The notes under the pieces: model-generated
The model's database searches: none
What the model was told of the DNA's origin: nothing
Seen by the model: only the letters and a program-made list of their open reading frames with translations
Program-made: the position numbers and the translations under genes
Shown: in pieces, positions 8,494 through 28,465 of the stretch
How the letters are laid out: every line of letters starts with the position of its first letter
How positions within the stretch are numbered: position 1 is the stretch's first letter
From: an uncultured bacterium
Lineage (GTDB): Bacteria > Margulisbacteria > CAYMKA01
NCBI GenBank assembly: GCA_964390935.1
Contig: CAYMKA010000001.1
Location: 1 to 49,226, forward strand
Reading direction: 5' to 3'
DNA length: 49,226 nt

Positions 8494-8922
8494 ATGTTAG
8501 AAAAATTATCTAAAGAAATTACCGACGCAATGAAGGCCAAAGACTCTAAACGTCTTGATGTTCTTCGCATGATGAAATCAAAAATTATGACGGTAAACAC
8601 CAAAGGCGTAGACGAAAAACAATCTTTAAACATTTTAAAAACTTATGTCAAAAATTTAAAAGAAGCAGTCGAGTTAACCCAAAAAGCAGGTAAAACCGAT
8701 GAAGTGGCTCAACTGCAATATGAAATTGGAGTGGTCAGTGAATACTTGCCTGCCGAAGCAGATCCTGCAGCCATTGCGAAAGTGGTCGAAGCGGCCATTG
8801 CGAAAGTGAACCCTCAGGGCCCTCAGGATTTTGGAAAAATTATGAAAGAAGTCATGAGTGCAGGACTTAATGCCGACGGAAATGTGATTAAGCAGATAGT
8901 GAACGAAAAACTTAAAAAATAA
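8494..8922 (+). CDS. yqeY: GatB/YqeY domain-containing protein
   Basis: 142 aa. MLEKLSKEITDAMKAKDSKRLDVLRMMKSKI...VSEYLP...AIAKV....GPQDFGKIMKEVM is the typical YqeY pattern. Its 3' end overlaps the convergent outer-membrane gene by 11 bp. Confidence 0.85.
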   Translation: MLEKLSKEITDAMKAKDSKRLDVLRMMKSKIMTVNTKGVDEKQSLNILKTYVKNLKEAVELTQKAGKTDEVAQLQYEIGVVSEYLPAEADPAAIAKVVEAAIAKVNPQGPQDFGKIMKEVMSAGLNADGNVIKQIVNEKLKK

Positions 8923-10537
8923 AGTTAATCCCTAAATACCCAAACCAGTATCTGTAACCCAAGCTGTCTTCCCGATAATAAAGTGAACCGTCATATTGCG
9001 TATGTTGATGAACCCAACGACTTTTGAAGAAAAAAGTGCTCGAAGTGGCCTGGCCAATTTCTTCACGATAAGCATACCCTGGACTGACTTTAAAATTTTG
9101 AGAAACAGGAATTTCATACTCCACCGCAGCTTGATTAGCTTTTAATTTGCGCGGATTCCCAGGTTGATCAATACGCATAAAATAAGAAGAAGGTTGATCA
9201 ATTTGATAATCATTTGTTTCAAGGCTTATTTTTAACGGTTTAATAAAAGCTTCTCGCCAACCCAGTCTTGCGGTGCTCTGAACTGATTTATTTTGATCAT
9301 AATAATTTGCACTCTCATAATCATATTCCAATTCAACTTGGTTAAGGGGATACCAGGCCAAAACGGCATTGTTCCAATTAGAGCGGTTAATCTGTTTGTC
9401 GGGTTCAAATCGTGATCGCAAAATAATGGCAGCATTGTTAAAAAAAGACCAACTGAGCCCGCCTCCATAAATATAATTAATGCCTATGGCCTGATCACTA
9501 CGCAGGCCTGCATCAAATAACAATCGAAAAGAGTCAGTCAGCGGCAAACGATAAGTCAAAATGCTGGTTAAATTCACAGATCGCGGGGTTTGTCCTTGCT
9601 GAGCTTCAGAATAAAAACTCGAAAACCATTCTACACCCGGGCTTTTAGCTAGTTGTTCATATTGTTTTTGATTTTCCAGTTCTTTTAAATTCATTTCCCA
9701 ATCCTTTTTTCTGGCCGGCCAACGTTTTTTAAGCAAATTAAAATACACTTGCGCATTTTCATATTCTTTTAACCACAAGGTCACATTGGCCAACTGCTCT
9801 AACAAATTTAAATCCCCTGGATTAGTTTGATAAGCTTTTAAGAGGGCTTCCTTAGAATTTTGAAAATCATTTTTATTTAAATAAATAGCACTCATTTCTT
9901 TAGTAGCCGGGCCAAAATATGCACTATTCCGTCTTACCGTTTTTAAAACATCTAGCGCATCGTCATTTTTTTTCTGCCTGAGGTAAGAATAAGCTAAATC
10001 CATTTTCACATTATCCTGATCAGGCTTTACGAGCAGAATTTTTCTAAAAATATTTTGAGCTTTGTCTTCTTCCTTAGCATTTAAATAAATTTGAGCCAGT
10101 TCTGTCATGGCCGGCACATCCCTGGGATCAGACAAAAGCAAAGATTCTAATTCTGAGAGAGACATTTTTGATTTCTTTGACCACATCAGAATTCGAGCAT
10201 ATTGCAATTGATAATCTTTATTTTCAGGATCAATCGTTAAAAGTTCTTTTGAATATTTTTCAGCTAATTTCCAATTTTTTAATTTAACGTAAATATCCGT
10301 TAATTCTTGTTTAAAGACCTCAGCCTTGGGCAAAATTAAAATAAGTTGATTGTATTTTTCAATGGCTTCAGTCTCGCGATTGTTCTTTTTTGCTGAAACT
10401 GCTTCGCGGTATAAATCCTGAACTTCGGGATCTAAATCATCATAAGAAAAATCTTCTGCTATCAAAGGCTGGGCCAGCCACAAAACACCCAGCACAAGCA
10501 GACTAAAACAGAGACTAGTTTTTACGTTTAAGGGCAT
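8912..10537 (-). CDS. Outer-membrane polysaccharide exporter: N-terminal TPR repeats plus C-terminal beta-barrel (BcsC/PgaA-like, compact)
   Basis: Signal peptide (LLVLGVLWLAQPLIA), then ~290 aa of TPR-like repeats. The C-terminal ~250 aa shows alternating-hydrophobic beta-strand patterning and ends ...YLGINFIF (aromatic OMP terminus). It is the last gene of the EPS operon. Confidence 0.75.
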   Translation of the reverse strand: MPLNVKTSLCFSLLVLGVLWLAQPLIAEDFSYDDLDPEVQDLYREAVSAKKNNRETEAIEKYNQLILILPKAEVFKQELTDIYVKLKNWKLAEKYSKELLTIDPENKDYQLQYARILMWSKKSKMSLSELESLLLSDPRDVPAMTELAQIYLNAKEEDKAQNIFRKILLVKPDQDNVKMDLAYSYLRQKKNDDALDVLKTVRRNSAYFGPATKEMSAIYLNKNDFQNSKEALLKAYQTNPGDLNLLEQLANVTLWLKEYENAQVYFNLLKKRWPARKKDWEMNLKELENQKQYEQLAKSPGVEWFSSFYSEAQQGQTPRSVNLTSILTYRLPLTDSFRLLFDAGLRSDQAIGINYIYGGGLSWSFFNNAAIILRSRFEPDKQINRSNWNNAVLAWYPLNQVELEYDYESANYYDQNKSVQSTARLGWREAFIKPLKISLETNDYQIDQPSSYFMRIDQPGNPRKLKANQAAVEYEIPVSQNFKVSPGYAYREEIGQATSSTFFFKSRWVHQHTQYDGSLYYREDSLGYRYWFGYLGINFIF

Positions 10538-12608
10538 ATAAAACGCTCATAGCGATCACTGCGAAAATCGTAAAGACCACAAAGAGCACCAGTAAAATTT
10601 GAAGTTTAATTTGCAGACTGCGCTGACGATCGGTTTGAATTTGACTCTTATCGTAAGAAGCGATGGTATTGATTTTTCCTGATTCGTTAACCACCACCAC
10701 ATTGGCCTCCAAAATAGCCAGTTGGTTGCGATTAATAATCGTATCCAGTGCTTTGAGCATTAGCTCATCATTGGTTCCTGTCACCACGACAATCGTTTTT
10801 AAAAAGTTAAAGGGAGAAGGAATAAGTTGAACGGTGCCCATTTGATCACGAAAATCATAAGGCAAACCAATTTGGCTGGAATGAATAAAGGGCTTACTGT
10901 CATCTAATCGAAATGAAATCGGTAATTTAGTATTCATTTGCGAAAATAATTTTTGACGCTCTGCCAAACCTATCACAATCAAGTGATTCGTTTTTAAATC
11001 TTCTTTGGTAATCTGACTGGCTTTTTTAACACTGAACCAGTTTTCATTTTTAGGCATGAGCTGCCCCATGCTCATGCTTAAACGTTCTAAAGCAGTTAAA
11101 TCGGCTGCTGTAGGCTGATCAGGCATAACAAAGAGCGGCAAATTTACTTTTTTGCGAAGTAAGTACGGCCCTGGCAAATCACTTAAATAAAAAACATTTT
11201 TATCGCGGTGTTTGTAATCCAGCCAAGAATCGCCATGAATAATAAACCAGGCTTTGTCGTAGTCTCTGCGGCCGCAATCTAAATTAACTTGCTGTTCAGT
11301 ATCAAGATAATAACGCACGGCGACCTCCAGCAGTTGGCGATCACGCGCCTGCGGAGGAATTTTGACCTTAAAATTCATTTTACGGCCAGGCACTGTTTTT
11401 AATTTGGTGGTCCCGGCATAAATGCCATTAATAAAAACAGTGACTTGCGATTTGGTGGAATCAAGCAAGGGTGACAAGCTAAATTTAAAATTAATGGCGG
11501 CACCGTCAAGCAGTTCCCAGGCGGCGGGGACAGCAAAATAAAAAGTAGTCGTCCCATTAAAACTGCCTCGATTAATCACGTCTTCATAACCGGCTTCTTT
11601 AAATGACAATTGATTTGAAAAAAAGGCTAATAAATCGTAATTAATCACTTTTTTAAAAATCGGAACAAATTGAGCGGTTTGATCTTTAAGTTTAAACAAA
11701 AAGTCTGGATGAAATTGATTGGTCAGAGCATTGCGGGCAGTTTCGAGTTTGTCGCTTTTAATCTGTAAAACAATTCCGTTGGCGTCTATTTTGGGCTGCA
11801 CAAACTGATACTGCACCTGTCCTGCCTCTATATTAAAGGTGGGGCTCATTTGCAGCAGATGAAATTTTTTAGACCAGTCCTTAGGCAATTTTAAAACGGA
11901 TTGAATCATGCCCGGATAAATATCCTTGTCCCAGTGTCCTAATTGTCTGGAAAAATTAGCAGCCATTTCTAGTGTCTGAGAATCTAAATTTTGATAATAA
12001 AACATTAAATCTTTAGTCTTAAACTGATTCATGCGTACTAACGGCTCAGGAAAATAATCTAACTTGGCTTTAAAAGGCTGATAAAAGATCTCTAATTTAG
12101 AGGTTTTTTTAACAACGTACCAATTTGAAGGGCTGTCTAAATCTTTACATAAATCCTCATTAGCCTGGGCAAAAAATTCAACCCGCAGATAATTAGCTCC
12201 AGACTTAATGATTTCTCCTTTTATTGGCAAGGTCACCCGACCTTCACGGCCAAAGAATTGAGCCAGTGTTAATGTTTTTAAAGGCACTTCATTTAATACA
12301 AAAGTGAGATTAGATAAGTTTTTAAGTAGAGTGTCTGAAAAATAAAAATCAAAAGTTAAATTGGCATTTTGAATATTTTTTACTGACTTAGGAACATAAA
12401 AATAAAAAGAGTAAGCCCCGCGTAGTCCTTTGACTGGAATTTCCTGGTCAGGCGATAAAATAATAGTACTGGTTAAAAATTTAGAAATATCATTTGGCAC
12501 AGCTTGGATGGCACTACCTAAAAGAAGCGTAAAAATAAATATTCCGACACAAAATCTTTTTAACACCGAGAAATGATTATAGGAGCAAATAAAAAGAATC
12601 CATAACAA
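10515..12608 (-). CDS. BcsB-like periplasmic synthase subunit with a C-terminal TM anchor
   Basis: Two repeated modules fit the BcsB pattern (...ANLTFDFYFSDTLLKNLSNLTFVLNEVPLKTL... and ...AAINFKFSLSPLLDSTKSQVTVFINGIYAGTTKL...). There is a single C-terminal TM helix (LQILLVLFVVFTIFAVIAMSVLYAL). The gene sits directly downstream of the GT2 synthase. Confidence 0.8.
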   Translation of the reverse strand: MLWILFICSYNHFSVLKRFCVGIFIFTLLLGSAIQAVPNDISKFLTSTIILSPDQEIPVKGLRGAYSFYFYVPKSVKNIQNANLTFDFYFSDTLLKNLSNLTFVLNEVPLKTLTLAQFFGREGRVTLPIKGEIIKSGANYLRVEFFAQANEDLCKDLDSPSNWYVVKKTSKLEIFYQPFKAKLDYFPEPLVRMNQFKTKDLMFYYQNLDSQTLEMAANFSRQLGHWDKDIYPGMIQSVLKLPKDWSKKFHLLQMSPTFNIEAGQVQYQFVQPKIDANGIVLQIKSDKLETARNALTNQFHPDFLFKLKDQTAQFVPIFKKVINYDLLAFFSNQLSFKEAGYEDVINRGSFNGTTTFYFAVPAAWELLDGAAINFKFSLSPLLDSTKSQVTVFINGIYAGTTKLKTVPGRKMNFKVKIPPQARDRQLLEVAVRYYLDTEQQVNLDCGRRDYDKAWFIIHGDSWLDYKHRDKNVFYLSDLPGPYLLRKKVNLPLFVMPDQPTAADLTALERLSMSMGQLMPKNENWFSVKKASQITKEDLKTNHLIVIGLAERQKLFSQMNTKLPISFRLDDSKPFIHSSQIGLPYDFRDQMGTVQLIPSPFNFLKTIVVVTGTNDELMLKALDTIINRNQLAILEANVVVVNESGKINTIASYDKSQIQTDRQRSLQIKLQILLVLFVVFTIFAVIAMSVLYALKRKN

Positions 12609-12626
12609 ATTGCAACAATTTAAATA

Positions 12627-13889
12627 CTAGACGTTTGTTGTAGGTTTATTGTTAAAGCGAACGGTTTTGTCCCAATGAAATAAATTTCTTTTTTTCTTTG
12701 GTTCGAATAAAGTCATTAATCCCAAAACAAGCCAGGCCTGACAATAAGTAAAGTACATCAAAAAAACCGTCAGAATATTTTTAAAACTGAGCTCTTTTTC
12801 TTCAAAAGCCAGCGTCAATAAACTGACCTGAAAAAACATCATAAAAGTAGCAAACCAAATTAAAGTTACCGGCCCTTCGACCGTAATGCGTGCCCATTCC
12901 CACTGAAAAATGCCGCATAAAAAAATAAAATCAGAAACTAAAATTAAAAAAATAAGGCTGTAATAGGTTGAGAACATATAAAGCATGGTTGAAAAAAGCC
13001 TGGGATTGGTTAAACCCTTCCCTAAGTATTTGTTCACAATATAAAAATTGCCCTTCACCCAGCGGCGGCGCTGCTTAAACCATACTTTCCATTCTTGGGG
13101 TTCTTGCTCCCAGGTCACAGCCGTAGGACAAAACCAAATGCGATAACCTTTTTCAATTAATCTCAAACTTAGTTCCGTGTCTTCTGTAAGCGACTTTGAA
13201 TCCCAATCGCCCATTTCTTTTAAAATCGCTCTTTTAATCACAAAGTTAGTTCCGGACAAAAAAGCAATGCGGTGCAAAAACCATTTGCCGGCTTGATGAG
13301 TCCATTGATGGACGATAAATTCAATATTAATAAACCGAGTCAACAAATTGACTTCCTTATTAATAGTGCGGACTTTTCCGACCACCGCTGCAATTTTGGG
13401 GTCAGACATCGCCGCTGTCACTAAAATTTCAAGAGACTGAGGTTCAGGATTATTGTCTGCATCATAAATAGCGATTAACTCATGGCTGGCGTGTTTAAGA
13501 CCATAATTTAAATTGCTCGATTTGCCACGATGAGCGATTTCAGGAGGAATGTTTAACAGTTTGATTTGTTTATATTTTTTAGAAAACTCAGTCACAATTT
13601 CTGCAGTATTATCTTTGGAGTCATCGTTAATCACAAAAATTTCAAGCTTTTCAGGCGGATAATCTAAATGAACCATGCTTTGCAAAGTATCGCGGATCAC
13701 CACCCCTTCGTTATAAGCAGGGATAAAAATCGAAACTCCAGGAAATTGTTTGTTAGCTGTCAACAAATCAATGGTTTCTTCTTGGTTAATATCACGATAA
13801 AAAATGGCAACCAAAAATAATACTCCGTTATAAATAATCATTAACCAAATTGAAAAAAGCGCAATCAAAAAAAGAGTATTTAAAATCAT
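12627..13889 (-). CDS. Processive family-2 glycosyltransferase (PgaC/IcaA/NodC/BcsA-core-like polysaccharide synthase), no PilZ domain
   Basis: Carries the D,D,D,QxxRW motif set: IFIPAYNE, INDDSKDNT, IYDADN, TEDTELSLRL, QRRRWVKG. TM helices flank the GT-A domain. Start moved to the ATG at 13889, which forms an ATGA overlap with the upstream stop; the protein is then 420 aa. Confidence 0.88.
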   Translation of the reverse strand: MILNTLFLIALFSIWLMIIYNGVLFLVAIFYRDINQEETIDLLTANKQFPGVSIFIPAYNEGVVIRDTLQSMVHLDYPPEKLEIFVINDDSKDNTAEIVTEFSKKYKQIKLLNIPPEIAHRGKSSNLNYGLKHASHELIAIYDADNNPEPQSLEILVTAAMSDPKIAAVVGKVRTINKEVNLLTRFINIEFIVHQWTHQAGKWFLHRIAFLSGTNFVIKRAILKEMGDWDSKSLTEDTELSLRLIEKGYRIWFCPTAVTWEQEPQEWKVWFKQRRRWVKGNFYIVNKYLGKGLTNPRLFSTMLYMFSTYYSLIFLILVSDFIFLCGIFQWEWARITVEGPVTLIWFATFMMFFQVSLLTLAFEEKELSFKNILTVFLMYFTYCQAWLVLGLMTLFEPKKKRNLFHWDKTVRFNNKPTTNV

Positions 13890-15757
13890 AATGTTCTCAT
13901 TTTCTGCTGACGACGATGGCTGATGTATTTCAGAGCAAAAACAATAAAAAGTCCCATGACAAATAAAATATTCGTCACGAAAAAAACCCACATCATGATT
14001 CGAAGCACAGAATCAAACCAGCTCATTGATTGCTTTCCCAAAAAAGTATCTTTTAACCATGATCCTGTTGAAATCATTTGCACATTGTCTTGAGTCAGCT
14101 TCATGACAAAAATACCTTTTTGAGTCGCTGGGATTTCAAACAAAGTATGGGCCCGTGATGGTTCTTCAATAAAATCAATAATATTTTCATGACCGTCGGG
14201 GTTCACCACAAAAGCCTTCATTTTTTGATAATCGAGTTTCACATTTTGAAGCGGATTAATTTTAAAATGAAAAAATTGCCCGTTCTTTTCAGGGTCATGC
14301 ATATTCGGAAGTCCCGAATACAGCACCCAATGCGGAGATTTCACCTGGTTAGGCAAATCACGCATATCCAAAAAATCAAATCCCATTTTTTTAAGACCTT
14401 TGATCAGTTCTTCCAGTTTTTCGGGAGGCATCCAGGGATGAAAAAAGCCGACGGCAATGGCATCGCGAACGACTAACATTTTCTTAGCTTCTGCCAACAT
14501 TTGTTCGATGGTCAGCCCCTCTTCCTCACTGTAATAACCCAAATTTTCAGGAATCACAAAACGGCCATAACGGTCTTTAATAAGATAAGGAAAATTTTGT
14601 GAGGCTTTGTATGATTTATCGCTGATCTGTAATCTCTCAACAGCAGTTGAAAAATATTCACCTAAAATTCGATAACTTAACTGTGAGGCCGCATAATGAG
14701 GGGTTTCCCAGGCGAGAGGATAAATTTTGGATTGCATTGTTAATTCCAATGCATCTTCAATTTTTTTTCTAATTTGCTCTTCATTCATCCCAGCAAAGGC
14801 TTTGTCTTTTTGCACGTTCCAAAATTCAAAACCTTCTCCTGTGATATTTTGATTGGCGTGGTTATAACCATGCAAAATGGCTGTCCCGCCTACAGTTTGC
14901 AGATAGCGCAGCGCAGAAACAAAATAAGGCCGCTCTGCCATTGTGAAGAATTGCTTCTGATCCTGATAAACAGGAATAACTGCGAAAGCAAAAGGGACAT
15001 GATATTTTTTAAATGTTTTTCCCAAATTTCTTAACATTTCTGGTCTATATTTAGGATGAACATCTTCAATACGAATAAAAGCTTGTTTAGAAGCCGGGTG
15101 ATATTCTTCCAAAATATCATGTAATAAATCTGCAAAAATATAAGAAGAACTACTCATAAAAAGCGGTAAATCACTAATGTACCAAAATTTTTTTTGTTTC
15201 ACTGCAAAAGGCACTTGCTCATCATTTCTAAAATGGCTGCCAATCAGTTTAATTTTTTTACGGTCATAGTTTGTGATCATAAAAACATCTTCACCCAAGC
15301 GGTCATAAAGCTGGCTTTGATAATATAATTTTGAAAAACCAAATTCTTGAGGAGCTATTCTGAAACCAAATTTTTGAGGATAAGCATTGATTAGACTTTG
15401 TGCACCTGCAAAAACCCAGCACACTGTTTTTTTATCCATCACGCTCACAATATCGTCATTAAATAATAAATTTGGTTTTTCTTTTGCGTCAGCACCGACA
15501 TAAAAAATGACATCGTATAAATTGACCAGCCCTTTTCGATAATCTTTAAGCGCCAGGGTCGCTGTTTGCACATCAAAGTGAGAAAGTAAATTTTGAAAAG
15601 ATGCGGGCAAATCATAAAGAGCGCCGGCCGGATATTCTTGATCGTAGACCACCAATACTTTTTTAAGAGATTGATCACTCCATAAAGCTGCGGTCAGCAC
15701 ACACACACTGAGAGCACACCAGAGCCCCAGTTTCAGGTTTTTCAAAAAAATTTTCAT
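13886..15757 (-). CDS. DUF2334-type (polysaccharide deacetylase-like) periplasmic protein with a C-terminal TM anchor
   Basis: Signal peptide. The central region (FIRIEDVHPKYRP...VPFAFAVIPVY...ILHGYNHAN...GEGFEFW) resembles DUF2334 of the deacetylase superfamily. C-terminal TM helix (IMMWVFFVTNILFVMGLFIVFAL). An ATGA overlap links it to the upstream gene. Confidence 0.65.
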   Translation of the reverse strand: MKIFLKNLKLGLWCALSVCVLTAALWSDQSLKKVLVVYDQEYPAGALYDLPASFQNLLSHFDVQTATLALKDYRKGLVNLYDVIFYVGADAKEKPNLLFNDDIVSVMDKKTVCWVFAGAQSLINAYPQKFGFRIAPQEFGFSKLYYQSQLYDRLGEDVFMITNYDRKKIKLIGSHFRNDEQVPFAVKQKKFWYISDLPLFMSSSSYIFADLLHDILEEYHPASKQAFIRIEDVHPKYRPEMLRNLGKTFKKYHVPFAFAVIPVYQDQKQFFTMAERPYFVSALRYLQTVGGTAILHGYNHANQNITGEGFEFWNVQKDKAFAGMNEEQIRKKIEDALELTMQSKIYPLAWETPHYAASQLSYRILGEYFSTAVERLQISDKSYKASQNFPYLIKDRYGRFVIPENLGYYSEEEGLTIEQMLAEAKKMLVVRDAIAVGFFHPWMPPEKLEELIKGLKKMGFDFLDMRDLPNQVKSPHWVLYSGLPNMHDPEKNGQFFHFKINPLQNVKLDYQKMKAFVVNPDGHENIIDFIEEPSRAHTLFEIPATQKGIFVMKLTQDNVQMISTGSWLKDTFLGKQSMSWFDSVLRIMMWVFFVTNILFVMGLFIVFALKYISHRRQQKMRTL

Positions 15758-16605
15758 GATTTTTTGACGACTAATTGCTGTTTACCAGCTTGGGTTCTTA
15801 AAGTCAGTGCCCGCTTCGCATCCTGAGGATAAGTAGCCATGCCAATTTTAATTTTGATCCCCAATTTAATATTGGTTTTACCGTATGAAAAATAACTGTT
15901 TAATAATTGATGAGCCATTAGATAGGCTTTACTTTTTATATCTTCTTCTGCCTGCCCTTCACACAAAACTTCAAAGTGTGTATCTCCTTTACGAGTTAAG
16001 GTATCTCCATCCTCTACCAAATCCATAATAGTTTTAAAAATTTTTTCACCAGTTAAAAATAAAGCTTTTCCGTTAAACACTCTTTGCACATCAGCATAGT
16101 CATCCAAACTTATATTTAAAACACTGAAATGACTTTTACGGCGCGTTGCTCTTGCCACCGCTTCAGTGAGAGCAGTTTCAAATTGTTTATCACTCACTAC
16201 TTTGACTTTACGTTCTCTGGCCATAGCACTAATTTCTTCAGGATGCTTTTTTTGAAGGCGATAATAAAAAATGAGGCCGTCTCCGATCATGCCAAAGAAA
16301 ACCCCTTCTATCAGATATAAAAACAGCCACAGGCCTTGATTAAATTGAAAATCAAAAAAGCCTGAGCTGGTAATTAATTGAAATAAAAATGTCCCAATAA
16401 AAATAAAAATTGCTATGAGCGATGAAAATATTCCTAAAATTGATCCCAACAATATGGCCACCAAAGAAACCATCAGGGCTAATAAAATATATAAAAAATA
16501 TTGAAGATCAAATTGAAAATAATATAAATAAAAATATCCAGCGCAAAAACCCACGGCTAAGAGAATTAATAAACTAATCCGAATTTGGTTAGCATAATTT
16601 GGCAT
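15754..16605 (-). CDS. Membrane protein (about 4 TM helices) with a cytoplasmic degenerate GGDEF-like domain
   Basis: The hydrophobic N-terminal ~110 aa is followed by a GGDEF-fold pattern (HFSVLNISLDDYADV...GEKIFKTIMDLVEDGDTLTRKGDTHFEVLCEG...IKIGMATYPQDA). The signature is GDTHF instead of GG(D/E)EF, and the I-site position reads EDGD rather than RxxD. Confidence 0.6.
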   Translation of the reverse strand: MPNYANQIRISLLILLAVGFCAGYFYLYYFQFDLQYFLYILLALMVSLVAILLGSILGIFSSLIAIFIFIGTFLFQLITSSGFFDFQFNQGLWLFLYLIEGVFFGMIGDGLIFYYRLQKKHPEEISAMARERKVKVVSDKQFETALTEAVARATRRKSHFSVLNISLDDYADVQRVFNGKALFLTGEKIFKTIMDLVEDGDTLTRKGDTHFEVLCEGQAEEDIKSKAYLMAHQLLNSYFSYGKTNIKLGIKIKIGMATYPQDAKRALTLRTQAGKQQLVVKKS

Positions 16606-16636
16606 AGACCGTCATGATCTACCCACCTTCAATGTT

Positions 16637-17773
16637 CTAATGCATCGATTCTTGTACAAAGGTCTGGTAGTGACGCAAGGCGGTCAAAATCAAGATATGA
16701 TCAAACGCTTCAAAAGGAGCCTGCCCAAAAGAACCATTGTTGTTTTGTAAAAGCAAAAGTTTTTTAGCTAAGGGTTGAGCAAACTCCATATCATTTTGAA
16801 AAACAGCCAGACTTAACATTAATCCATAAACGGCAGGACTTTCATAATCAACCAAAGCTTTCAAAGTGACGGGATGATAACGACCGTAGACTTTGCCTTT
16901 CTTTAAGTATTCATTTTTGAGCCATAAATATAATTTAGAGGGTTTTCCATTCACCTGACTTTCTACCTGAGCACAAATCAATTGATTAATTAAATTCATA
17001 TCTTGTAAGCCATACTTTGATTTATCAATAAGATATTTATCAAAATAAAATCCGGTGGGAGTTTTTCCCCCATTCAATAGTTTTTGAGATCGGTATAAAA
17101 CCGCCTGCCAGTCTTTATCAAATTGAGACAAATAAGCCATGGCTGGTAAATCGAGATAGGACAAATCAACTTTAAATGAAATATCAGGCTGCGGAGCTTC
17201 ACAATAAGACTCGACAAAATAGTTATCTCTTAAATTAATTTTTTTCATACGCTGGGCCATCACAGCGCTTAATGCCAAGTATTTTTTTTGTTTCCAAATT
17301 TTTCCTGCCTGGGCCAAGGCAAACGCAATACGCAAATCATCAAGAGAGGCATTGCAAGAACTGGGAGTCGATTGATCAATACGCCAATACACCCAATCTT
17401 CTGGACTCAAAAAATACCGTTGCAAATTTTTAACCTGTTTATCAAAAATGCTTTGGCGCTGCGTTTCCACCAAATACACCATCCACAAACCTAGCGTTTC
17501 TGACAAATATTCATTTTCTTGAGAATTTTTGAGCGGGTCAAATTGTTTAATCACCCCCCGGCGGTAAGTGAGATGATTGAGCACAAATTCAACCCCTTTA
17601 TCTTGGGCTAGTGACAAAGCCTGCGTTTGCGTATCCGGCTGAACAGGAGGCTTATAAAAAAGTCTCAGACAAAGAAAAACAACAATAAAAAACAACATTA
17701 ATCCTATTGCTACTTTTATTTCTAAACGATTGCGATATAGCCACTTTTGAAAAGGACTTTTAATTCGTGACAT
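16637..17773 (-). CDS. Glycoside hydrolase family 8-like enzyme (BcsZ-position), N-terminally membrane anchored
   Basis: LSETLGLWMVY resembles the GH8 catalytic SEGQGYGM region. ASLDDLRIAFALAQAGKIW is a near match to the GH8 signature A-[ST]-D-[AG]-D-x2-[IM]-A-x-[SA]... N-terminal TM helix. Start taken at the ATG at 17773 (MSRIKSP); the alternative start is 17803. Confidence 0.65.
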   Translation of the reverse strand: MSRIKSPFQKWLYRNRLEIKVAIGLMLFFIVVFLCLRLFYKPPVQPDTQTQALSLAQDKGVEFVLNHLTYRRGVIKQFDPLKNSQENEYLSETLGLWMVYLVETQRQSIFDKQVKNLQRYFLSPEDWVYWRIDQSTPSSCNASLDDLRIAFALAQAGKIWKQKKYLALSAVMAQRMKKINLRDNYFVESYCEAPQPDISFKVDLSYLDLPAMAYLSQFDKDWQAVLYRSQKLLNGGKTPTGFYFDKYLIDKSKYGLQDMNLINQLICAQVESQVNGKPSKLYLWLKNEYLKKGKVYGRYHPVTLKALVDYESPAVYGLMLSLAVFQNDMEFAQPLAKKLLLLQNNNGSFGQAPFEAFDHILILTALRHYQTFVQESMH

Positions 17774-17793
17774 TTCCTCTATATTATAGAGGC

Positions 17794-18303
17794 ATGAGAT
17801 CAAAGATTGTTTTAGCCCTTTTAGTTTTAGGAATTACTTTATATTTATCCACTCTAGAGCCGGGCTATTCCGATGAACTGGTAACCACCGCGTCCTCTGT
17901 AGTCTCGTTTCAAAATGTCGACTGGTCAAAATTTTTAGGCGGGCGATTTTCTTTTTTTATCAACCAAATTGGAATGCCTGATCAAATTTATCCCAAGCGT
18001 TACAGCGCTGATGACCGGGAAGATGATGTCGTCATGTATTATCGCGGTGCTGGAGTCGATATGCGGGTTTATGTGTGGGACAACAACATTTATCGATTTT
18101 ATTTTTCAAAAGAACACCGCTTTAATATTTTTCAAGGGGTACGAACCAACATGAACAAAGAACAAATTGAATCAGTGCTGGGACCAGTTAATAAAATTAC
18201 CGAAAAGAATTTATATTTATGGAAATCAGGTCAGCAAAAAATTATTGTTACTTTTGACGACAAAAACATTGCTAAAGAAATTATGTTATCGCTAGAAAGA
18301 TAA
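17794..18303 (+). CDS. Small secreted hypothetical protein, divergent from the EPS operon
   Basis: ATG at 17794 after agagg. Signal-like N-terminus (MRSKIVLALLVLGITLYLS). No family recognised. Confidence 0.55.
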   Translation: MRSKIVLALLVLGITLYLSTLEPGYSDELVTTASSVVSFQNVDWSKFLGGRFSFFINQIGMPDQIYPKRYSADDREDDVVMYYRGAGVDMRVYVWDNNIYRFYFSKEHRFNIFQGVRTNMNKEQIESVLGPVNKITEKNLYLWKSGQQKIIVTFDDKNIAKEIMLSLER

Positions 18304-18640: not shown

Positions 18641-19006
18641 GATGTTCTTCGCATGATGAAATCAAAAATTATGACGGTAAACACCAAAGGCGTAGACGAA
18701 AAACAATCTTTAAACATTTTAAAAACTTATGTCAAAAATTTAAAAGAAGCAGTCGAGTTAACCCAAAAAGCAGGTAAAACCGATGAAGTGGCTCAACTGC
18801 AATATGAAATTGGAGTGGTCAGTGAATACTTGCCTGCCGAAGCAGATCCTGCAGCCATTGCGAAAGTGGTCGAAGCGGCCATTGCGAAAGTGAACCCTCA
18901 GGGCCCTCAGGATTTTGGAAAAATTATGAAAGAAGTCATGAGTGCAGGACTTAATGCCGACGGAAATGTGATTAAGCAGATAGTGAACGAAAAACTTAAA
19001 AAATAA
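18641..19006 (+). pseudogene. 5'-truncated yqeY copy (codons 22-142), lacking its start and upstream region
   Basis: Identical to 8557..8922. The track ORF 18653..19006 begins at internal Met26 (MMKSKIMTVN...). Confidence 0.85.
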
Positions 19007-20621
19007 AGTTAATCCCTAAATACCCAAACCAGTATCTGTAACCCAAGCTGTCTTCCCGATAATAAAGTGAACCGTCATATTGCGTATGTTGATGAACCCA
19101 ACGACTTTTGAAGAAAAAAGTGCTCGAAGTGGCCTGGCCAATTTCTTCACGATAAGCATACCCTGGACTGACTTTAAAATTTTGAGAAACAGGAATTTCA
19201 TACTCCACCGCAGCTTGATTAGCTTTTAATTTGCGCGGATTCCCAGGTTGATCAATACGCATAAAATAAGAAGAAGGTTGATCAATTTGATAATCATTTG
19301 TTTCAAGGCTTATTTTTAACGGTTTAATAAAAGCTTCTCGCCAACCCAGTCTTGCGGTGCTCTGAACTGATTTATTTTGATCATAATAATTTGCACTCTC
19401 ATAATCATATTCCAATTCAACTTGGTTAAGGGGATACCAGGCCAAAACGGCATTGTTCCAATTAGAGCGGTTAATCTGTTTGTCGGGTTCAAATCGTGAT
19501 CGCAAAATAATGGCAGCATTGTTAAAAAAAGACCAACTGAGCCCGCCTCCATAAATATAATTAATGCCTATGGCCTGATCACTACGCAGGCCTGCATCAA
19601 ATAACAATCGAAAAGAGTCAGTCAGCGGCAAACGATAAGTCAAAATGCTGGTTAAATTCACAGATCGCGGGGTTTGTCCTTGCTGAGCTTCAGAATAAAA
19701 ACTCGAAAACCATTCTACACCCGGGCTTTTAGCTAGTTGTTCATATTGTTTTTGATTTTCCAGTTCTTTTAAATTCATTTCCCAATCCTTTTTTCTGGCC
19801 GGCCAACGTTTTTTAAGCAAATTAAAATACACTTGCGCATTTTCATATTCTTTTAACCACAAGGTCACATTGGCCAACTGCTCTAACAAATTTAAATCCC
19901 CTGGATTAGTTTGATAAGCTTTTAAGAGGGCTTCCTTAGAATTTTGAAAATCATTTTTATTTAAATAAATAGCACTCATTTCTTTAGTAGCCGGGCCAAA
20001 ATATGCACTATTCCGTCTTACCGTTTTTAAAACATCTAGCGCATCGTCATTTTTTTTCTGCCTGAGGTAAGAATAAGCTAAATCCATTTTCACATTATCC
20101 TGATCAGGCTTTACGAGCAGAATTTTTCTAAAAATATTTTGAGCTTTGTCTTCTTCCTTAGCATTTAAATAAATTTGAGCCAGTTCTGTCATGGCCGGCA
20201 CATCCCTGGGATCAGACAAAAGCAAAGATTCTAATTCTGAGAGAGACATTTTTGATTTCTTTGACCACATCAGAATTCGAGCATATTGCAATTGATAATC
20301 TTTATTTTCAGGATCAATCGTTAAAAGTTCTTTTGAATATTTTTCAGCTAATTTCCAATTTTTTAATTTAACGTAAATATCCGTTAATTCTTGTTTAAAG
20401 ACCTCAGCCTTGGGCAAAATTAAAATAAGTTGATTGTATTTTTCAATGGCTTCAGTCTCGCGATTGTTCTTTTTTGCTGAAACTGCTTCGCGGTATAAAT
20501 CCTGAACTTCGGGATCTAAATCATCATAAGAAAAATCTTCTGCTATCAAAGGCTGGGCCAGCCACAAAACACCCAGCACAAGCAGACTAAAACAGAGACT
20601 AGTTTTTACGTTTAAGGGCAT
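18996..20621 (-). CDS. Outer-membrane TPR + beta-barrel polysaccharide exporter (copy 2)
   Basis: Translation identical to 8912..10537. Confidence 0.75.
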   Translation of the reverse strand: MPLNVKTSLCFSLLVLGVLWLAQPLIAEDFSYDDLDPEVQDLYREAVSAKKNNRETEAIEKYNQLILILPKAEVFKQELTDIYVKLKNWKLAEKYSKELLTIDPENKDYQLQYARILMWSKKSKMSLSELESLLLSDPRDVPAMTELAQIYLNAKEEDKAQNIFRKILLVKPDQDNVKMDLAYSYLRQKKNDDALDVLKTVRRNSAYFGPATKEMSAIYLNKNDFQNSKEALLKAYQTNPGDLNLLEQLANVTLWLKEYENAQVYFNLLKKRWPARKKDWEMNLKELENQKQYEQLAKSPGVEWFSSFYSEAQQGQTPRSVNLTSILTYRLPLTDSFRLLFDAGLRSDQAIGINYIYGGGLSWSFFNNAAIILRSRFEPDKQINRSNWNNAVLAWYPLNQVELEYDYESANYYDQNKSVQSTARLGWREAFIKPLKISLETNDYQIDQPSSYFMRIDQPGNPRKLKANQAAVEYEIPVSQNFKVSPGYAYREEIGQATSSTFFFKSRWVHQHTQYDGSLYYREDSLGYRYWFGYLGINFIF

Positions 20622-22692
20622 ATAAAACGCTCATAGCGATCACTGCGAAAATCGTAAAGACCACAAAGAGCACCAGTAAAATTTGAAGTTTAATTTGCAG
20701 ACTGCGCTGACGATCGGTTTGAATTTGACTCTTATCGTAAGAAGCGATGGTATTGATTTTTCCTGATTCGTTAACCACCACCACATTGGCCTCCAAAATA
20801 GCCAGTTGGTTGCGATTAATAATCGTATCCAGTGCTTTGAGCATTAGCTCATCATTGGTTCCTGTCACCACGACAATCGTTTTTAAAAAGTTAAAGGGAG
20901 AAGGAATAAGTTGAACGGTGCCCATTTGATCACGAAAATCATAAGGCAAACCAATTTGGCTGGAATGAATAAAGGGCTTACTGTCATCTAATCGAAATGA
21001 AATCGGTAATTTAGTATTCATTTGCGAAAATAATTTTTGACGCTCTGCCAAACCTATCACAATCAAGTGATTCGTTTTTAAATCTTCTTTGGTAATCTGA
21101 CTGGCTTTTTTAACACTGAACCAGTTTTCATTTTTAGGCATGAGCTGCCCCATGCTCATGCTTAAACGTTCTAAAGCAGTTAAATCGGCTGCTGTAGGCT
21201 GATCAGGCATAACAAAGAGCGGCAAATTTACTTTTTTGCGAAGTAAGTACGGCCCTGGCAAATCACTTAAATAAAAAACATTTTTATCGCGGTGTTTGTA
21301 ATCCAGCCAAGAATCGCCATGAATAATAAACCAGGCTTTGTCGTAGTCTCTGCGGCCGCAATCTAAATTAACTTGCTGTTCAGTATCAAGATAATAACGC
21401 ACGGCGACCTCCAGCAGTTGGCGATCACGCGCCTGCGGAGGAATTTTGACCTTAAAATTCATTTTACGGCCAGGCACTGTTTTTAATTTGGTGGTCCCGG
21501 CATAAATGCCATTAATAAAAACAGTGACTTGCGATTTGGTGGAATCAAGCAAGGGTGACAAGCTAAATTTAAAATTAATGGCGGCACCGTCAAGCAGTTC
21601 CCAGGCGGCGGGGACAGCAAAATAAAAAGTAGTCGTCCCATTAAAACTGCCTCGATTAATCACGTCTTCATAACCGGCTTCTTTAAATGACAATTGATTT
21701 GAAAAAAAGGCTAATAAATCGTAATTAATCACTTTTTTAAAAATCGGAACAAATTGAGCGGTTTGATCTTTAAGTTTAAACAAAAAGTCTGGATGAAATT
21801 GATTGGTCAGAGCATTGCGGGCAGTTTCGAGTTTGTCGCTTTTAATCTGTAAAACAATTCCGTTGGCGTCTATTTTGGGCTGCACAAACTGATACTGCAC
21901 CTGTCCTGCCTCTATATTAAAGGTGGGGCTCATTTGCAGCAGATGAAATTTTTTAGACCAGTCCTTAGGCAATTTTAAAACGGATTGAATCATGCCCGGA
22001 TAAATATCCTTGTCCCAGTGTCCTAATTGTCTGGAAAAATTAGCAGCCATTTCTAGTGTCTGAGAATCTAAATTTTGATAATAAAACATTAAATCTTTAG
22101 TCTTAAACTGATTCATGCGTACTAACGGCTCAGGAAAATAATCTAACTTGGCTTTAAAAGGCTGATAAAAGATCTCTAATTTAGAGGTTTTTTTAACAAC
22201 GTACCAATTTGAAGGGCTGTCTAAATCTTTACATAAATCCTCATTAGCCTGGGCAAAAAATTCAACCCGCAGATAATTAGCTCCAGACTTAATGATTTCT
22301 CCTTTTATTGGCAAGGTCACCCGACCTTCACGGCCAAAGAATTGAGCCAGTGTTAATGTTTTTAAAGGCACTTCATTTAATACAAAAGTGAGATTAGATA
22401 AGTTTTTAAGTAGAGTGTCTGAAAAATAAAAATCAAAAGTTAAATTGGCATTTTGAATATTTTTTACTGACTTAGGAACATAAAAATAAAAAGAGTAAGC
22501 CCCGCGTAGTCCTTTGACTGGAATTTCCTGGTCAGGCGATAAAATAATAGTACTGGTTAAAAATTTAGAAATATCATTTGGCACAGCTTGGATGGCACTA
22601 CCTAAAAGAAGCGTAAAAATAAATATTCCGACACAAAATCTTTTTAACACCGAGAAATGATTATAGGAGCAAATAAAAAGAATCCATAACAA
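20599..22692 (-). CDS. BcsB-like periplasmic synthase subunit (copy 2)
   Basis: Translation identical to 10515..12608. Confidence 0.8.
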   Translation of the reverse strand: MLWILFICSYNHFSVLKRFCVGIFIFTLLLGSAIQAVPNDISKFLTSTIILSPDQEIPVKGLRGAYSFYFYVPKSVKNIQNANLTFDFYFSDTLLKNLSNLTFVLNEVPLKTLTLAQFFGREGRVTLPIKGEIIKSGANYLRVEFFAQANEDLCKDLDSPSNWYVVKKTSKLEIFYQPFKAKLDYFPEPLVRMNQFKTKDLMFYYQNLDSQTLEMAANFSRQLGHWDKDIYPGMIQSVLKLPKDWSKKFHLLQMSPTFNIEAGQVQYQFVQPKIDANGIVLQIKSDKLETARNALTNQFHPDFLFKLKDQTAQFVPIFKKVINYDLLAFFSNQLSFKEAGYEDVINRGSFNGTTTFYFAVPAAWELLDGAAINFKFSLSPLLDSTKSQVTVFINGIYAGTTKLKTVPGRKMNFKVKIPPQARDRQLLEVAVRYYLDTEQQVNLDCGRRDYDKAWFIIHGDSWLDYKHRDKNVFYLSDLPGPYLLRKKVNLPLFVMPDQPTAADLTALERLSMSMGQLMPKNENWFSVKKASQITKEDLKTNHLIVIGLAERQKLFSQMNTKLPISFRLDDSKPFIHSSQIGLPYDFRDQMGTVQLIPSPFNFLKTIVVVTGTNDELMLKALDTIINRNQLAILEANVVVVNESGKINTIASYDKSQIQTDRQRSLQIKLQILLVLFVVFTIFAVIAMSVLYALKRKN

Positions 22693-22710
22693 ATTGCAAC
22701 AATTTAAATA

Positions 22711-23973
22711 CTAGACGTTTGTTGTAGGTTTATTGTTAAAGCGAACGGTTTTGTCCCAATGAAATAAATTTCTTTTTTTCTTTGGTTCGAATAAAGTCAT
22801 TAATCCCAAAACAAGCCAGGCCTGACAATAAGTAAAGTACATCAAAAAAACCGTCAGAATATTTTTAAAACTGAGCTCTTTTTCTTCAAAAGCCAGCGTC
22901 AATAAACTGACCTGAAAAAACATCATAAAAGTAGCAAACCAAATTAAAGTTACCGGCCCTTCGACCGTAATGCGTGCCCATTCCCACTGAAAAATGCCGC
23001 ATAAAAAAATAAAATCAGAAACTAAAATTAAAAAAATAAGGCTGTAATAGGTTGAGAACATATAAAGCATGGTTGAAAAAAGCCTGGGATTGGTTAAACC
23101 CTTCCCTAAGTATTTGTTCACAATATAAAAATTGCCCTTCACCCAGCGGCGGCGCTGCTTAAACCATACTTTCCATTCTTGGGGTTCTTGCTCCCAGGTC
23201 ACAGCCGTAGGACAAAACCAAATGCGATAACCTTTTTCAATTAATCTCAAACTTAGTTCCGTGTCTTCTGTAAGCGACTTTGAATCCCAATCGCCCATTT
23301 CTTTTAAAATCGCTCTTTTAATCACAAAGTTAGTTCCGGACAAAAAAGCAATGCGGTGCAAAAACCATTTGCCGGCTTGATGAGTCCATTGATGGACGAT
23401 AAATTCAATATTAATAAACCGAGTCAACAAATTGACTTCCTTATTAATAGTGCGGACTTTTCCGACCACCGCTGCAATTTTGGGGTCAGACATCGCCGCT
23501 GTCACTAAAATTTCAAGAGACTGAGGTTCAGGATTATTGTCTGCATCATAAATAGCGATTAACTCATGGCTGGCGTGTTTAAGACCATAATTTAAATTGC
23601 TCGATTTGCCACGATGAGCGATTTCAGGAGGAATGTTTAACAGTTTGATTTGTTTATATTTTTTAGAAAACTCAGTCACAATTTCTGCAGTATTATCTTT
23701 GGAGTCATCGTTAATCACAAAAATTTCAAGCTTTTCAGGCGGATAATCTAAATGAACCATGCTTTGCAAAGTATCGCGGATCACCACCCCTTCGTTATAA
23801 GCAGGGATAAAAATCGAAACTCCAGGAAATTGTTTGTTAGCTGTCAACAAATCAATGGTTTCTTCTTGGTTAATATCACGATAAAAAATGGCAACCAAAA
23901 ATAATACTCCGTTATAAATAATCATTAACCAAATTGAAAAAAGCGCAATCAAAAAAAGAGTATTTAAAATCAT
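22711..23973 (-). CDS. Processive GT2 polysaccharide synthase without PilZ (copy 2)
   Basis: Translation identical to 12627..13889, with the same ATGA start/stop overlap. Confidence 0.88.
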   Translation of the reverse strand: MILNTLFLIALFSIWLMIIYNGVLFLVAIFYRDINQEETIDLLTANKQFPGVSIFIPAYNEGVVIRDTLQSMVHLDYPPEKLEIFVINDDSKDNTAEIVTEFSKKYKQIKLLNIPPEIAHRGKSSNLNYGLKHASHELIAIYDADNNPEPQSLEILVTAAMSDPKIAAVVGKVRTINKEVNLLTRFINIEFIVHQWTHQAGKWFLHRIAFLSGTNFVIKRAILKEMGDWDSKSLTEDTELSLRLIEKGYRIWFCPTAVTWEQEPQEWKVWFKQRRRWVKGNFYIVNKYLGKGLTNPRLFSTMLYMFSTYYSLIFLILVSDFIFLCGIFQWEWARITVEGPVTLIWFATFMMFFQVSLLTLAFEEKELSFKNILTVFLMYFTYCQAWLVLGLMTLFEPKKKRNLFHWDKTVRFNNKPTTNV

Positions 23974-25841: not shown

Positions 25842-26689
25842 GATTTTTTGACGACTAATTGCTGTTTACCAGCTTGGGTTCTTAAAGTCAGTGCCCGCTT
25901 CGCATCCTGAGGATAAGTAGCCATGCCAATTTTAATTTTGATCCCCAATTTAATATTGGTTTTACCGTATGAAAAATAACTGTTTAATAATTGATGAGCC
26001 ATTAGATAGGCTTTACTTTTTATATCTTCTTCTGCCTGCCCTTCACACAAAACTTCAAAGTGTGTATCTCCTTTACGAGTTAAGGTATCTCCATCCTCTA
26101 CCAAATCCATAATAGTTTTAAAAATTTTTTCACCAGTTAAAAATAAAGCTTTTCCGTTAAACACTCTTTGCACATCAGCATAGTCATCCAAACTTATATT
26201 TAAAACACTGAAATGACTTTTACGGCGCGTTGCTCTTGCCACCGCTTCAGTGAGAGCAGTTTCAAATTGTTTATCACTCACTACTTTGACTTTACGTTCT
26301 CTGGCCATAGCACTAATTTCTTCAGGATGCTTTTTTTGAAGGCGATAATAAAAAATGAGGCCGTCTCCGATCATGCCAAAGAAAACCCCTTCTATCAGAT
26401 ATAAAAACAGCCACAGGCCTTGATTAAATTGAAAATCAAAAAAGCCTGAGCTGGTAATTAATTGAAATAAAAATGTCCCAATAAAAATAAAAATTGCTAT
26501 GAGCGATGAAAATATTCCTAAAATTGATCCCAACAATATGGCCACCAAAGAAACCATCAGGGCTAATAAAATATATAAAAAATATTGAAGATCAAATTGA
26601 AAATAATATAAATAAAAATATCCAGCGCAAAAACCCACGGCTAAGAGAATTAATAAACTAATCCGAATTTGGTTAGCATAATTTGGCAT
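25838..26689 (-). CDS. Membrane-anchored degenerate GGDEF-like protein (copy 2)
   Basis: Translation identical to 15754..16605. Confidence 0.6.
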   Translation of the reverse strand: MPNYANQIRISLLILLAVGFCAGYFYLYYFQFDLQYFLYILLALMVSLVAILLGSILGIFSSLIAIFIFIGTFLFQLITSSGFFDFQFNQGLWLFLYLIEGVFFGMIGDGLIFYYRLQKKHPEEISAMARERKVKVVSDKQFETALTEAVARATRRKSHFSVLNISLDDYADVQRVFNGKALFLTGEKIFKTIMDLVEDGDTLTRKGDTHFEVLCEGQAEEDIKSKAYLMAHQLLNSYFSYGKTNIKLGIKIKIGMATYPQDAKRALTLRTQAGKQQLVVKKS

Positions 26690-26720
26690 AGACCGTCATG
26701 ATCTACCCACCTTCAATGTT

Positions 26721-27857: not shown

Positions 27858-27877
27858 TTCCTCTATATTATAGAGGC

Positions 27878-28387: not shown

Positions 28388-28394
28388 AAATACA

Positions 28395-28465
28395 GGCCCC
28401 TCCCGTCCCCTAAAGGGGATGGTCAGTTTTAAAAACAAATTCCCCCTTTAGGGGGTTAGGGGGCC
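28395..28465. repeat. GC-rich imperfect palindromic element, copy B (duplicate of copy A)
   Basis: Identical to 18311..18381. It lies between the convergent 27878..28387 and 28465..29568 genes. Confidence 0.7.

Follow-up and report, generated by a model that had tools for sequence, protein, structure and literature searches.

A probable two-membrane version of the Yda/Pss exopolysaccharide operon, present as a perfect tandem repeat in a Margulisbacteria-like genome

The six genes and their products

The window analysed here, a stretch of 49,226 nucleotides from contig CAYMKA010000001.1 (assembly GCA_964390935.1) of an uncultured bacterium assigned to the Margulisbacteria, carries six co-directional open reading frames (ORFs) on its minus strand (8912-17803), which probably form a diderm version of the Yda/Pss-type synthase-dependent exopolysaccharide system. 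A first-pass annotation made from the letters alone had described six tightly packed same-strand genes, and the ORF listing places them at the coordinates it gave. The junctions between the GGDEF and DUF2334 genes and between the DUF2334 and glycosyltransferase family 2 (GT2) genes are ATGA overlaps (two of the five), the genes for the BcsB-like subunit and the porin overlap by 23 nt, and a gap of 31 nt separates the hydrolase gene from the GGDEF gene; between the GT2 and BcsB-like genes the gap is 18-59 nt, depending on the start codon chosen for the latter. All six domain assignments made at that stage are upheld by Pfam and NCBIfam profiles and by structure searches, with profile hidden Markov models (HMMs) confirming the BcsB, GT2, DUF2334, GH8, GGDEF and tetratricopeptide repeat (TPR) calls, and the Pfam matches of the six proteins (Table 1) all exceed the gathering scores.

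The best sequence match of the hydrolase (gene 1) in the PDB is PssZ of Listeria (6R2M, E 1.7e-23), followed by the GH126 founder CPF_2247 (3REN, 1.6e-18), whereas E. coli BcsZ is matched only with E 6e-4, about 19 orders of magnitude worse than PssZ. The catalytic-acid motif “LSE..GL,” with the catalytic Glu, is conserved, and there is one N-terminal transmembrane (TM) helix at residues 31-49 (TM helices are given here from hydropathy throughout). Independent gene calls start this gene about 10 codons later, giving 378 aa. The “PssZ” of the Sphingomonas literature is an unrelated protein and was set aside. The second gene product has about four N-terminal TM helices and a degenerate signature, with GDTHF in place of GGDEF at 207-211. 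Its proposed resemblance to PelD fails, since 283 aa leave no room for a GAF domain.

In the DUF2334 protein (gene 3), an N-terminal signal or anchor (TM helix at 3-21) precedes a flavodoxin/GATase-like domain, which is followed by a CE4-like deacetylase barrel and a beta-sandwich; a second TM helix (591-609) lies at the C-terminus. No solved structure is alike at the sequence level. Its AlphaFold2 (AF2) model, with a predicted local distance difference test score (pLDDT) of 84, is matched by Foldseek first to PelA (9CGY, E 1.6e-11) and then to the N-deacetylase domain of NDST1 and many CE4 deacetylases, and the N-terminal domain resembles class-I glutamine-amidotransferase and flavodoxin folds. 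The PelA and CE4 matches support, at fold level, the earlier view of DUF2334 as an analogue of PgaB and PelA. Residues E231, D232, H296, H300, H354, D432 and H440, invariant across 25 diverse homologues, would fit an Asp/His/His metal site with additional acid/base residues, and judging from the modelled fold the protein probably de-N-acetylates the polymer. Members of its own 90% cluster carry the JGI name “uncharacterized protein YdaL.” In the literature examined, whose coverage was incomplete and is no proof of absence, we found nothing that discusses DUF2334 together with exopolysaccharide.

For the synthase (gene 4), the ATG giving 420 aa was also chosen by independent gene calls. Its reading as a processive GT2 with D,D,D,QRRRW motifs and without PilZ agrees with Pfam and with the motif positions, which are D89, D143xD145, T235-E-D and Q273RRRW; TM helices lie at the N-terminus, and three more at the C-terminus. 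Among the NCBIfam models PgaC_IcaA comes closest, with 158 bits where the cutoff is 422 bits, the CelA model reaches 104 bits against 699 bits, and Pfam gives a weak match to Chitin_synth_2. In direct comparison the protein is about equally distant from E. coli PgaC (72.5 bits, E 1e-23) and BcsA (68.2 bits), its best sequence matches in the PDB are BcsA chains (E 6e-18), and it has neither a phmmer match to NfrB nor an MshEN domain. The GT2 proteins adjoining DUF2334 in other genomes match it with E-values of 1e-97 to 1e-117 (phmmer). The BcsB-like subunit (gene 5) had been recognized together with its C-terminal anchor, which hydropathy places at 671-689; the Pfam match agrees, while every NCBIfam BcsB model remains far below its cutoff and BcsB chains in the PDB match only to 2.5e-6, as against 1e-35 to 1e-47 for Clostridial counterparts in DUF2334 neighborhoods. 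An alternative start at 12567 would give 683 aa.

The C-terminal 250 residues of the last gene product (gene 6) match no Pfam family. Its AF2 model was built on six close homologues and is of moderate confidence (mean pLDDT 79, predicted TM-score (pTM) 0.47); in it, some seven TPR pairs come first, and residues 301-540 then form 14-15 long beta strands. As a whole the model is matched by Foldseek to E. coli BcsC (9B8A/9B8H, 551-585 columns, E 6e-9 or about 1e-8), and its barrel to that of PgaA (4Y25, E 5e-8, target TM-score 0.57), in agreement with the TPR and beta-barrel exporter of BcsC/PgaA type proposed earlier. The protein ends in ...NFIF, and all homologues from related clusters align across the whole barrel and end in Phe, a terminal aromatic residue that is the usual outer-membrane signal. 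At the sequence level the barrel is isolated: only 4 clusters are found at E ≤ 1e-3 among 1.84 billion representative proteins, the family HMM matches only cluster-linked proteins across 90 loci, hhalign against the barrels of E. coli PgaA, BcsC and NfrA yields probabilities below 10% and no significant similarity, and it is the TPR region alone that matches PgaA (16 bits). Because of this isolation, the exporter assignment rests on fold and not on family membership; at that level the predicted structure supports it.

Table 1. Features of the operon, its second copy and the junction between the copies.
Feature	Position	Strand	Basis or remark
Gene 1: membrane-anchored GH126/GH8-type (alpha/alpha)6 hydrolase, YdaJ/PssZ counterpart	16637..17803	-	Pfam Glyco_hydro_8 36.8 bits; PssZ match
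Gene 2: 283-aa ~4-TM degenerate GGDEF protein, YdaK/PssE counterpart	15754..16605	-	Pfam GGDEF 32.2 bits
Gene 3: 623-aa DUF2334/YdaL-type protein, putative polymer de-N-acetylase	13886..15757	-	Pfam DUF2334 161 bits; fold
Gene 4: 420-aa processive GT2 synthase without PilZ, YdaM/PssC counterpart	12627..13889	-	Pfam Glyco_tranf_2_3 132 bits
Gene 5: BcsB-like periplasmic subunit with signal peptide and C-terminal TM anchor, YdaN/PssD counterpart	10515..12608	-	Pfam BcsB 174 bits
Gene 6: 541-aa outer-membrane exporter with signal peptide, ~7 TPR repeats and C-terminal beta-barrel of ~14-16 strands	8912..10537	-	TPR Pfam matches; AF2 model
Second operon copy	18996..27887	-	Genes at 26721-27887, 25838-26689, 23970-25841, 22711-23973, 20599-22692, 18996-20621
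Truncated yqeY'	18653-19006	+	Made by junction
Truncated TPR/CxxCxxCC gene fragment	18381-18665	-	Made by junction

Relationship to Yda/Pss and other synthase-dependent systems

The first-pass annotation took this combination of genes for no described operon type. Its first five genes, however, have the order of ydaJKLMN of Bacillus subtilis, whose counterpart in Listeria is pss, and only the TPR-porin gene is added. In B. subtilis the operon encodes the hydrolase YdaJ, the degenerate-GGDEF receptor YdaK, which has four TM helices and binds cyclic di-GMP (c-di-GMP), and the synthase machinery YdaL/M/N (PMC5422440, PMC7064775, PMC9800504, PMC13274460). Hydrolase, 283-aa GGDEF protein with four TM helices, YdaL/DUF2334 protein, GT2 and BcsB-like subunit thus follow each other as in the window (PMC5422440, PMC13274460), a likeness drawn from gene order and published descriptions. 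The systems differ in the outer-membrane exporter gene of the window, in the RxxD of YdaK as against ExxD in gene 2, and in their setting, ydaJKLMN being SigB-controlled in a monoderm host whereas the window stems from an uncultured, presumably diderm lineage. In Listeria, pssA-E encodes among others PssC, a GT2 about equally similar to synthases of poly-N-acetylglucosamine (PNAG) and of cellulose, PssD, an orthologue of BcsB, and PssE, a degenerate-GGDEF I-site receptor (PMC4125290); PssB has been named as a deacetylase (PMC6307706), and it is by description only that we liken it to the DUF2334 protein. The window shares with this system a GT2 equidistant from PgaC and BcsA, the BcsB orthologue, the degenerate GGDEF protein, a putative deacetylase and a hydrolase of GH126/GH8 fold. 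It differs in that pssE is the last gene and pssZ lies in a separate operon in Listeria, that PssA has no counterpart in the window, and that Listeria has no outer-membrane component.

The distribution of the genes was surveyed by scanning an alignment of 11 DUF2334 sequences against 185,579 species genomes, which gave 377 relatives; 80 loci were examined, and neighbors were detected by phmmer with the window proteins against the six-frame ORFs of those loci. Such a neighborhood survey had been proposed in the first pass, and it shows that the five-gene order recurs, on one strand and as in the window (hydrolase-GGDEF-DUF2334-GT2-BcsB, here architecture A), in 11 Clostridia/Bacillota genomes. 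In three loci (L007, L008 and L009) architecture A is followed by a TPR-barrel gene, a fourth (L010) being incomplete past the GT2 gene, and three further loci of diderm type on metagenome contigs (L087, L088 and L090) have a porin gene after BcsB. Besides the window there are hence six porin-bearing loci, including metagenome-assembled genomes (MAGs) of Omnitrophota. The BcsB, GGDEF and hydrolase genes are a module common to the Bacillota and diderm loci, and the porin is a diderm-specific addition. Two MAGs with the diderm-type cluster, L007 (JAJCYG010000087.1) and L010 (CAZOWS010000269.1), are labelled Actinomycetes/Actinomycetota; the porin of L007 has the outer-membrane C-terminal signal, and either the labels or the binning look doubtful.

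A second and much commoner arrangement, architecture B, accounts for 65 loci, which belong to Bacteroidota, Acidobacteriota, Ignavibacteria, Chlorobi, KSB1 and Elusimicrobia (within L011-L086, e.g., L011:9923-15146). Here a fusion protein of about 1300 aa, comprising GHL6 (PF14871), DUF2334 and GHL10 (PF02638) (per P0013 and P0019), precedes a YdaM-like GT2, and no BcsB, GGDEF or GH126 gene lies within 10 kb; we found no literature on this arrangement. Since the GT2 adjoining DUF2334 is always close to that of the window, and since single-chain fusions of the two exist, DUF2334 and GT2 form the conserved core. The fusions, single polypeptides of 860-1000 aa with GT2 synthase domains and DUF2334 (P0025, P0046, P0055, P0082 and P0092, one of them from an Actinomycetota MAG), are a Rosetta-stone link of the two core proteins.

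Other settings of DUF2334 were also seen. In Metabacillus iocasae (L097, JAFBFC010000002.1) a receiver/Trans_reg_C-like protein, DUF2334, GT2 and two unannotated proteins are encoded together, without BcsB, GGDEF or hydrolase, and a B. thuringiensis plasmid carries an orphan DUF2334 gene. On the megaplasmid of Ralstonia solanacearum (L093, CP022773.1, 543304-551598) the neighbors are an NfrB homologue, a 585-aa hypothetical protein, a uridine diphosphate (UDP)-N-acetylglucosamine (GlcNAc) 2-epimerase, a 105-aa hypothetical protein, DUF2334 and a 295-aa hypothetical protein. The NfrB homologue is annotated as “phage receptor protein” and matches NfrB of E. coli with E 1e-135, the cluster is conserved in 136 Ralstonia megaplasmid records, and it ties DUF2334 to a second, unrelated synthase of N-acetylmannosamine (ManNAc) type.

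Among the well-studied Gram-negative systems, PgaABCD shares with the window a GT2 without PilZ, a periplasmic deacetylase and a TPR-beta-barrel porin, on whose structure (4Y25) the window barrel model superposes. The window lacks PgaD, however, its deacetylase is a DUF2334 protein and not PgaB (CE4+GH153), no match to PgaB or PgaD was found, and it has BcsB-like, GGDEF-like and GH126 proteins in addition. With Pel it shares PelA as the best fold match of DUF2334 and a membrane-anchored degenerate GGDEF protein reminiscent of PelD, whereas GAF, the GT4 PelF, PelB, PelC, PelE, PelG and the GH166 domain of PelA are all missing and the synthase is a GT2. NfrBA-YbcH is likewise synthase-dependent, has a TPR-barrel outer-membrane protein and needs a UDP-GlcNAc 2-epimerase, and the NfrB homologue of Ralstonia clusters with an epimerase and DUF2334; yet similarity to NfrB is undetectable in the window GT2, which also lacks MshEN, and the barrel shows none to NfrA.

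The cellulose (Bcs) systems share with the window a BcsB-family subunit with C-terminal anchor, an (alpha/alpha)6 hydrolase and the TPR-porin architecture. One could therefore imagine a divergent Bcs system, with a PilZ-less BcsA, BcsB, BcsZ and BcsC, in which a GGDEF protein of its own has taken over the sensing of c-di-GMP; the Pfam BcsB match, the BcsA chains as best PDB matches of the GT2 (E 6e-18) and the alignment of the porin model with BcsC would speak for it. We consider this highly improbable: apart from the missing PilZ domain, the NCBIfam models of BcsA, BcsB, BcsZ and BcsC all stay far below their cutoffs, the hydrolase fits PssZ so much better than BcsZ (by about 19 orders of magnitude), and a deacetylase-like enzyme in the window, with a UDP-GlcNAc 2-epimerase linked in relatives, would make no sense for a glucan. 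Indeed, the homologous BcsB-containing system of Listeria makes no cellulose (PMC4125290, PMC6307706). We regard the affiliation with Yda/Pss as probable and follow it below.

Predicted product, export and regulation

In the working model, the GT2 synthase and the BcsB-like subunit would polymerize a UDP-sugar and thread the chain across the inner membrane, with the degenerate-GGDEF protein and its four TM helices regulating the synthase complex or serving as its scaffold. In the periplasm the chain would be modified, probably de-N-acetylated, by the membrane-anchored DUF2334 enzyme. The PssZ-like hydrolase, itself anchored, would trim or release it, and passage through the outer membrane would fall to the TPR and beta-barrel protein, in the manner of PgaA and BcsC. 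The sugar would most likely be ManNAc, forming a Pss-like beta-ManNAc backbone, and not GlcNAc or glucose.

This last prediction comes from the neighborhood of related operons. A UDP-GlcNAc 2-epimerase gene (Pfam Epimerase_2) directly follows the porin gene in five of the six other diderm loci (L007, L008, L009, L088 and L090), and the same gene adjoins more than 20 architecture-B loci. The Listeria Pss polymer consists of beta-1,4-ManNAc with alpha-1,6-Gal (PMC6307706, PMC5039582), and E. coli NfrB has been proposed to make a WecB-dependent ManNAc polymer (PMC8669472). For the Yda polymer of B. subtilis an alpha-Gal/GalNAc lectin signal has been reported (PMC13274460). Because the epimerase linkage recurs, our best guess is a ManNAc-based polymer, possibly de-N-acetylated by the DUF2334 enzyme, ahead of a PNAG- or chitosan-like one and also of cellulose, a ranking drawn by analogy. 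As the window and its syntenic relative L087 have no epimerase gene nearby, ManNAc is assigned to the window organism indirectly, by association.

The first pass had instead suggested that parts of Bcs, Pga and Pel are combined here in an undescribed hybrid, whose product would be a partly de-N-acetylated GlcNAc polymer of PNAG or chitosan type. That the closest NCBIfam model of the GT2 is PgaC_IcaA (158 bits), that Chitin_synth_2 is weakly matched, that the DUF2334 protein has a CE4-like fold and that the window contains no epimerase gene would all be consistent with this. But the PgaC_IcaA score is far below the 422-bit cutoff and about the same score is reached with BcsA as with PgaC, the set and order of five genes are those of ydaJKLMN/pss (PMC5422440, PMC4125290), PgaB and PgaD are absent, the epimerase gene is linked in relatives, and the hydrolase resembles PssZ, which cleaves a ManNAc-Gal polymer (PMC7479077). 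The epimerase linkage and the Listeria product thus make a ManNAc-based polymer the likelier one, and we regard the GlcNAc hybrid as quite unlikely.

With respect to regulation, YdaK has an RxxR motif at 157-160, the primary RxxD at 202-205 and then SDERI five residues after RxxD, and the exchanges R202A or D205A in RxxD abolish its exopolysaccharide production (PMC5422440). The spacing of RxxR, I-site and degenerate GGDEF motif in gene 2 is nearly identical to that published for YdaK. The secondary motif, RATR at 152-155, is conserved throughout the homologues, and the primary I-site position (198-201) reads EDGD and not the RxxD expected of Yda/Pss systems. Alignments of the homologues show RxxD intact in L007, L088, the Omnitrophota loci and all Clostridial loci, with KETD in L090 and EDGD in the window and L087. 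A shifted I-site, RKGD at 205-208, was considered and rejected, since these residues correspond to “R-x-G-G” in the GGDEF motif, and such a realignment would disrupt the pattern of strands common to all homologues. Searches of the window revealed neither a diguanylate cyclase nor a PilZ domain, and no c-di-GMP riboswitch either.

Because the I-site Arg is now Glu and the window holds no PilZ, cyclase or riboswitch, c-di-GMP control is uncertain in this lineage; gating may have been weakened or lost there, and the subunit may have been kept as a structural part of the synthase complex. It could still be gated in spite of ExxD, through RxxR or other contacts and in the manner of YdaK and PssE: the secondary RxxR and the overall domain are conserved, and the subunit is present, under apparent selection, in every BcsB-bearing locus. 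Given that the primary RxxD is essential in YdaK and that Glu (window and L087) or Lys (L090) occupies the position of the Arg, with no cyclase, PilZ domain or riboswitch seen in the window, we are inclined to doubt this. Another form of control is suggested by two of the related loci, L088 (5582-7844) and L090 (980-1351), in which a divergent gene upstream of the operon encodes a single-domain response regulator, L088 also having a PAS-HisKA-HATPase-receiver hybrid kinase; this suggests two-component control of the operon in L088 and L090. The flanks of the window operon contain nothing like these response regulators.

Several points weigh against reading the operon as a two-membrane Yda/Pss system with a ManNAc-type product. 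Orthology to YdaK-N and PssB-E is drawn via the Clostridial loci, published descriptions and a name based on COG; DUF2334 proteins are putative deacetylases; the I-site arginine is missing in gene 2; the porin model comes from a shallow alignment of six sequences (pTM 0.47), and its barrel has no sequence-level similarity to known exopolysaccharide porins; and no epimerase gene occurs in the 49-kb window or beside the operon in L087.

Tandem duplication and the host contig

The segment 8557-18640 is identical to 18641-28724: the two are arranged head-to-tail, each is 10,084 bp long, and there are 0 mismatches. A second copy of the operon had already been noticed in the first pass at 18996..27887, and it is indeed found there, offset by 10,084 bp. 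At the novel junction, 18640/18641, the 3' part of a TPR/CxxCxxCC gene is joined to the 3' part of yqeY, which creates two truncated genes (Table 1), while the intact yqeY and TPR/CxxCxxCC genes lie at the outer edges (8494-8922 and 28465-29568). Near the breakpoints only a CGTCT pentamer is shared. Among other assemblies, L002 (ERZ27282941) spans the junction with 100% identity, L004 (SRR6837582) continues past it for 30 nt, the contig L003 (SRR6837566) has the length of exactly one unit and ends at the duplication boundaries, and L001 has a single-copy path with both flanks; the syntenic relative L087, 76% identical, has one copy.

The best reading is a recent tandem duplication of the whole operon, which would double the dosage of its genes. 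Alternatively, the second copy might be an assembly artefact, from a mis-join or from walking a cycle twice (for instance a circular molecule of 10,084 bp); the perfect identity of the copies, the Logan contig of exactly one unit and the single-copy assembly with both flanks could be so explained. However, the end-to-start junction occurs in at least three independent assemblies of different accessions (window, L002 and L004), and a circle alone would leave two units with unique flanks on both sides unexplained. The breakpoints fall within two ordinary genes, with no integrase and no terminal repeat but the CGTCT pentamer only, which is the usual picture for illegitimate tandem duplication and unlike that of a mobile element, and the single-copy path in L001 is the usual outcome when short-read assemblers collapse tandem repeats. 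An artefact is therefore unlikely.

The novel features are a dedicated porin from a rare family and an epimerase linkage that points to ManNAc, together with I-site decay in the window lineage and the perfect duplication of the operon. We tentatively propose an undescribed Gram-negative branch of Yda/Pss systems, with six genes here and seven elsewhere, in which a BcsB-containing non-cellulose synthase, a rare compact TPR-porin and a UDP-GlcNAc 2-epimerase would secrete a (partly de-N-acetylated) poly-ManNAc-type polymer in uncultured phyla (a Margulisbacteria-like lineage and Omnitrophota); in the window lineage, where the I-site would have been lost, tandem amplification of the operon might determine output by way of gene dosage. 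The pathway has so far been studied only in Gram-positive bacteria, and for a Gram-negative Yda/Pss system we found no literature (coverage was incomplete and does not prove absence). A Yda/Pss core in cells with two membranes would mean that BcsB-type subunits serve non-cellulose synthases well beyond Bacillota, and gene 6 would be a candidate for an exporter, different from NfrA, that takes ManNAc-type polymers through the outer membrane. The Yda-type, giant-fusion and Ralstonia Nfr-type loci, for their part, would link the DUF2334 family to polymer systems of many phyla that depend on UDP-ManNAc. The erosion of the I-site together with a perfect 10-kb duplication offers a natural test case for regulation once c-di-GMP sensing decays. 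These findings extend a known system and do not overturn current models.

The presence of a tRNA-Leu, of the gene for ribosomal protein S2 and of riboflavin and sulfite-reduction genes shows the contig to be chromosomal. The closest named relatives of the S2 protein are those of Candidatus Margulisbacteria (61-66% identity), followed by Treponema (~59%), and the host represents a lineage so far undescribed. Since the operon encodes a porin, the host is presumably diderm.

Next to the operon lies a divergent gene of 169-178 aa (17767..18303, plus strand; second copy 27851..28387, plus strand) with only a sub-threshold BamE-like match. It is conserved beside the operon in L087 only and absent there in the other diderm loci, and it is doubtful that it belongs to the system. 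Its start lies about 20-40 nt from that of the hydrolase gene, which would place the operon promoter inside or very near it; a promoter search found none for the operon. Elsewhere in the window, ORFs of 771, 250 and 326 aa (1508-3823, minus; 4037-4789, plus; 40841-41821, minus) are without a Pfam match at E ≤ 1e-4. An ATPase encoded at 7377-8444 (plus strand), two genes away from the operon, has a weak BcsQ match (38 bits) and stands beside the operon only in the close relative L087; with no linkage to the cluster outside the lineage of the window, it was rejected as a BcsQ analogue. The protein joins a ParA/MinD-type ATPase (AAA_31) to a glycogen-binding CBM48/AMPK1_CBM domain, an unusual fusion.

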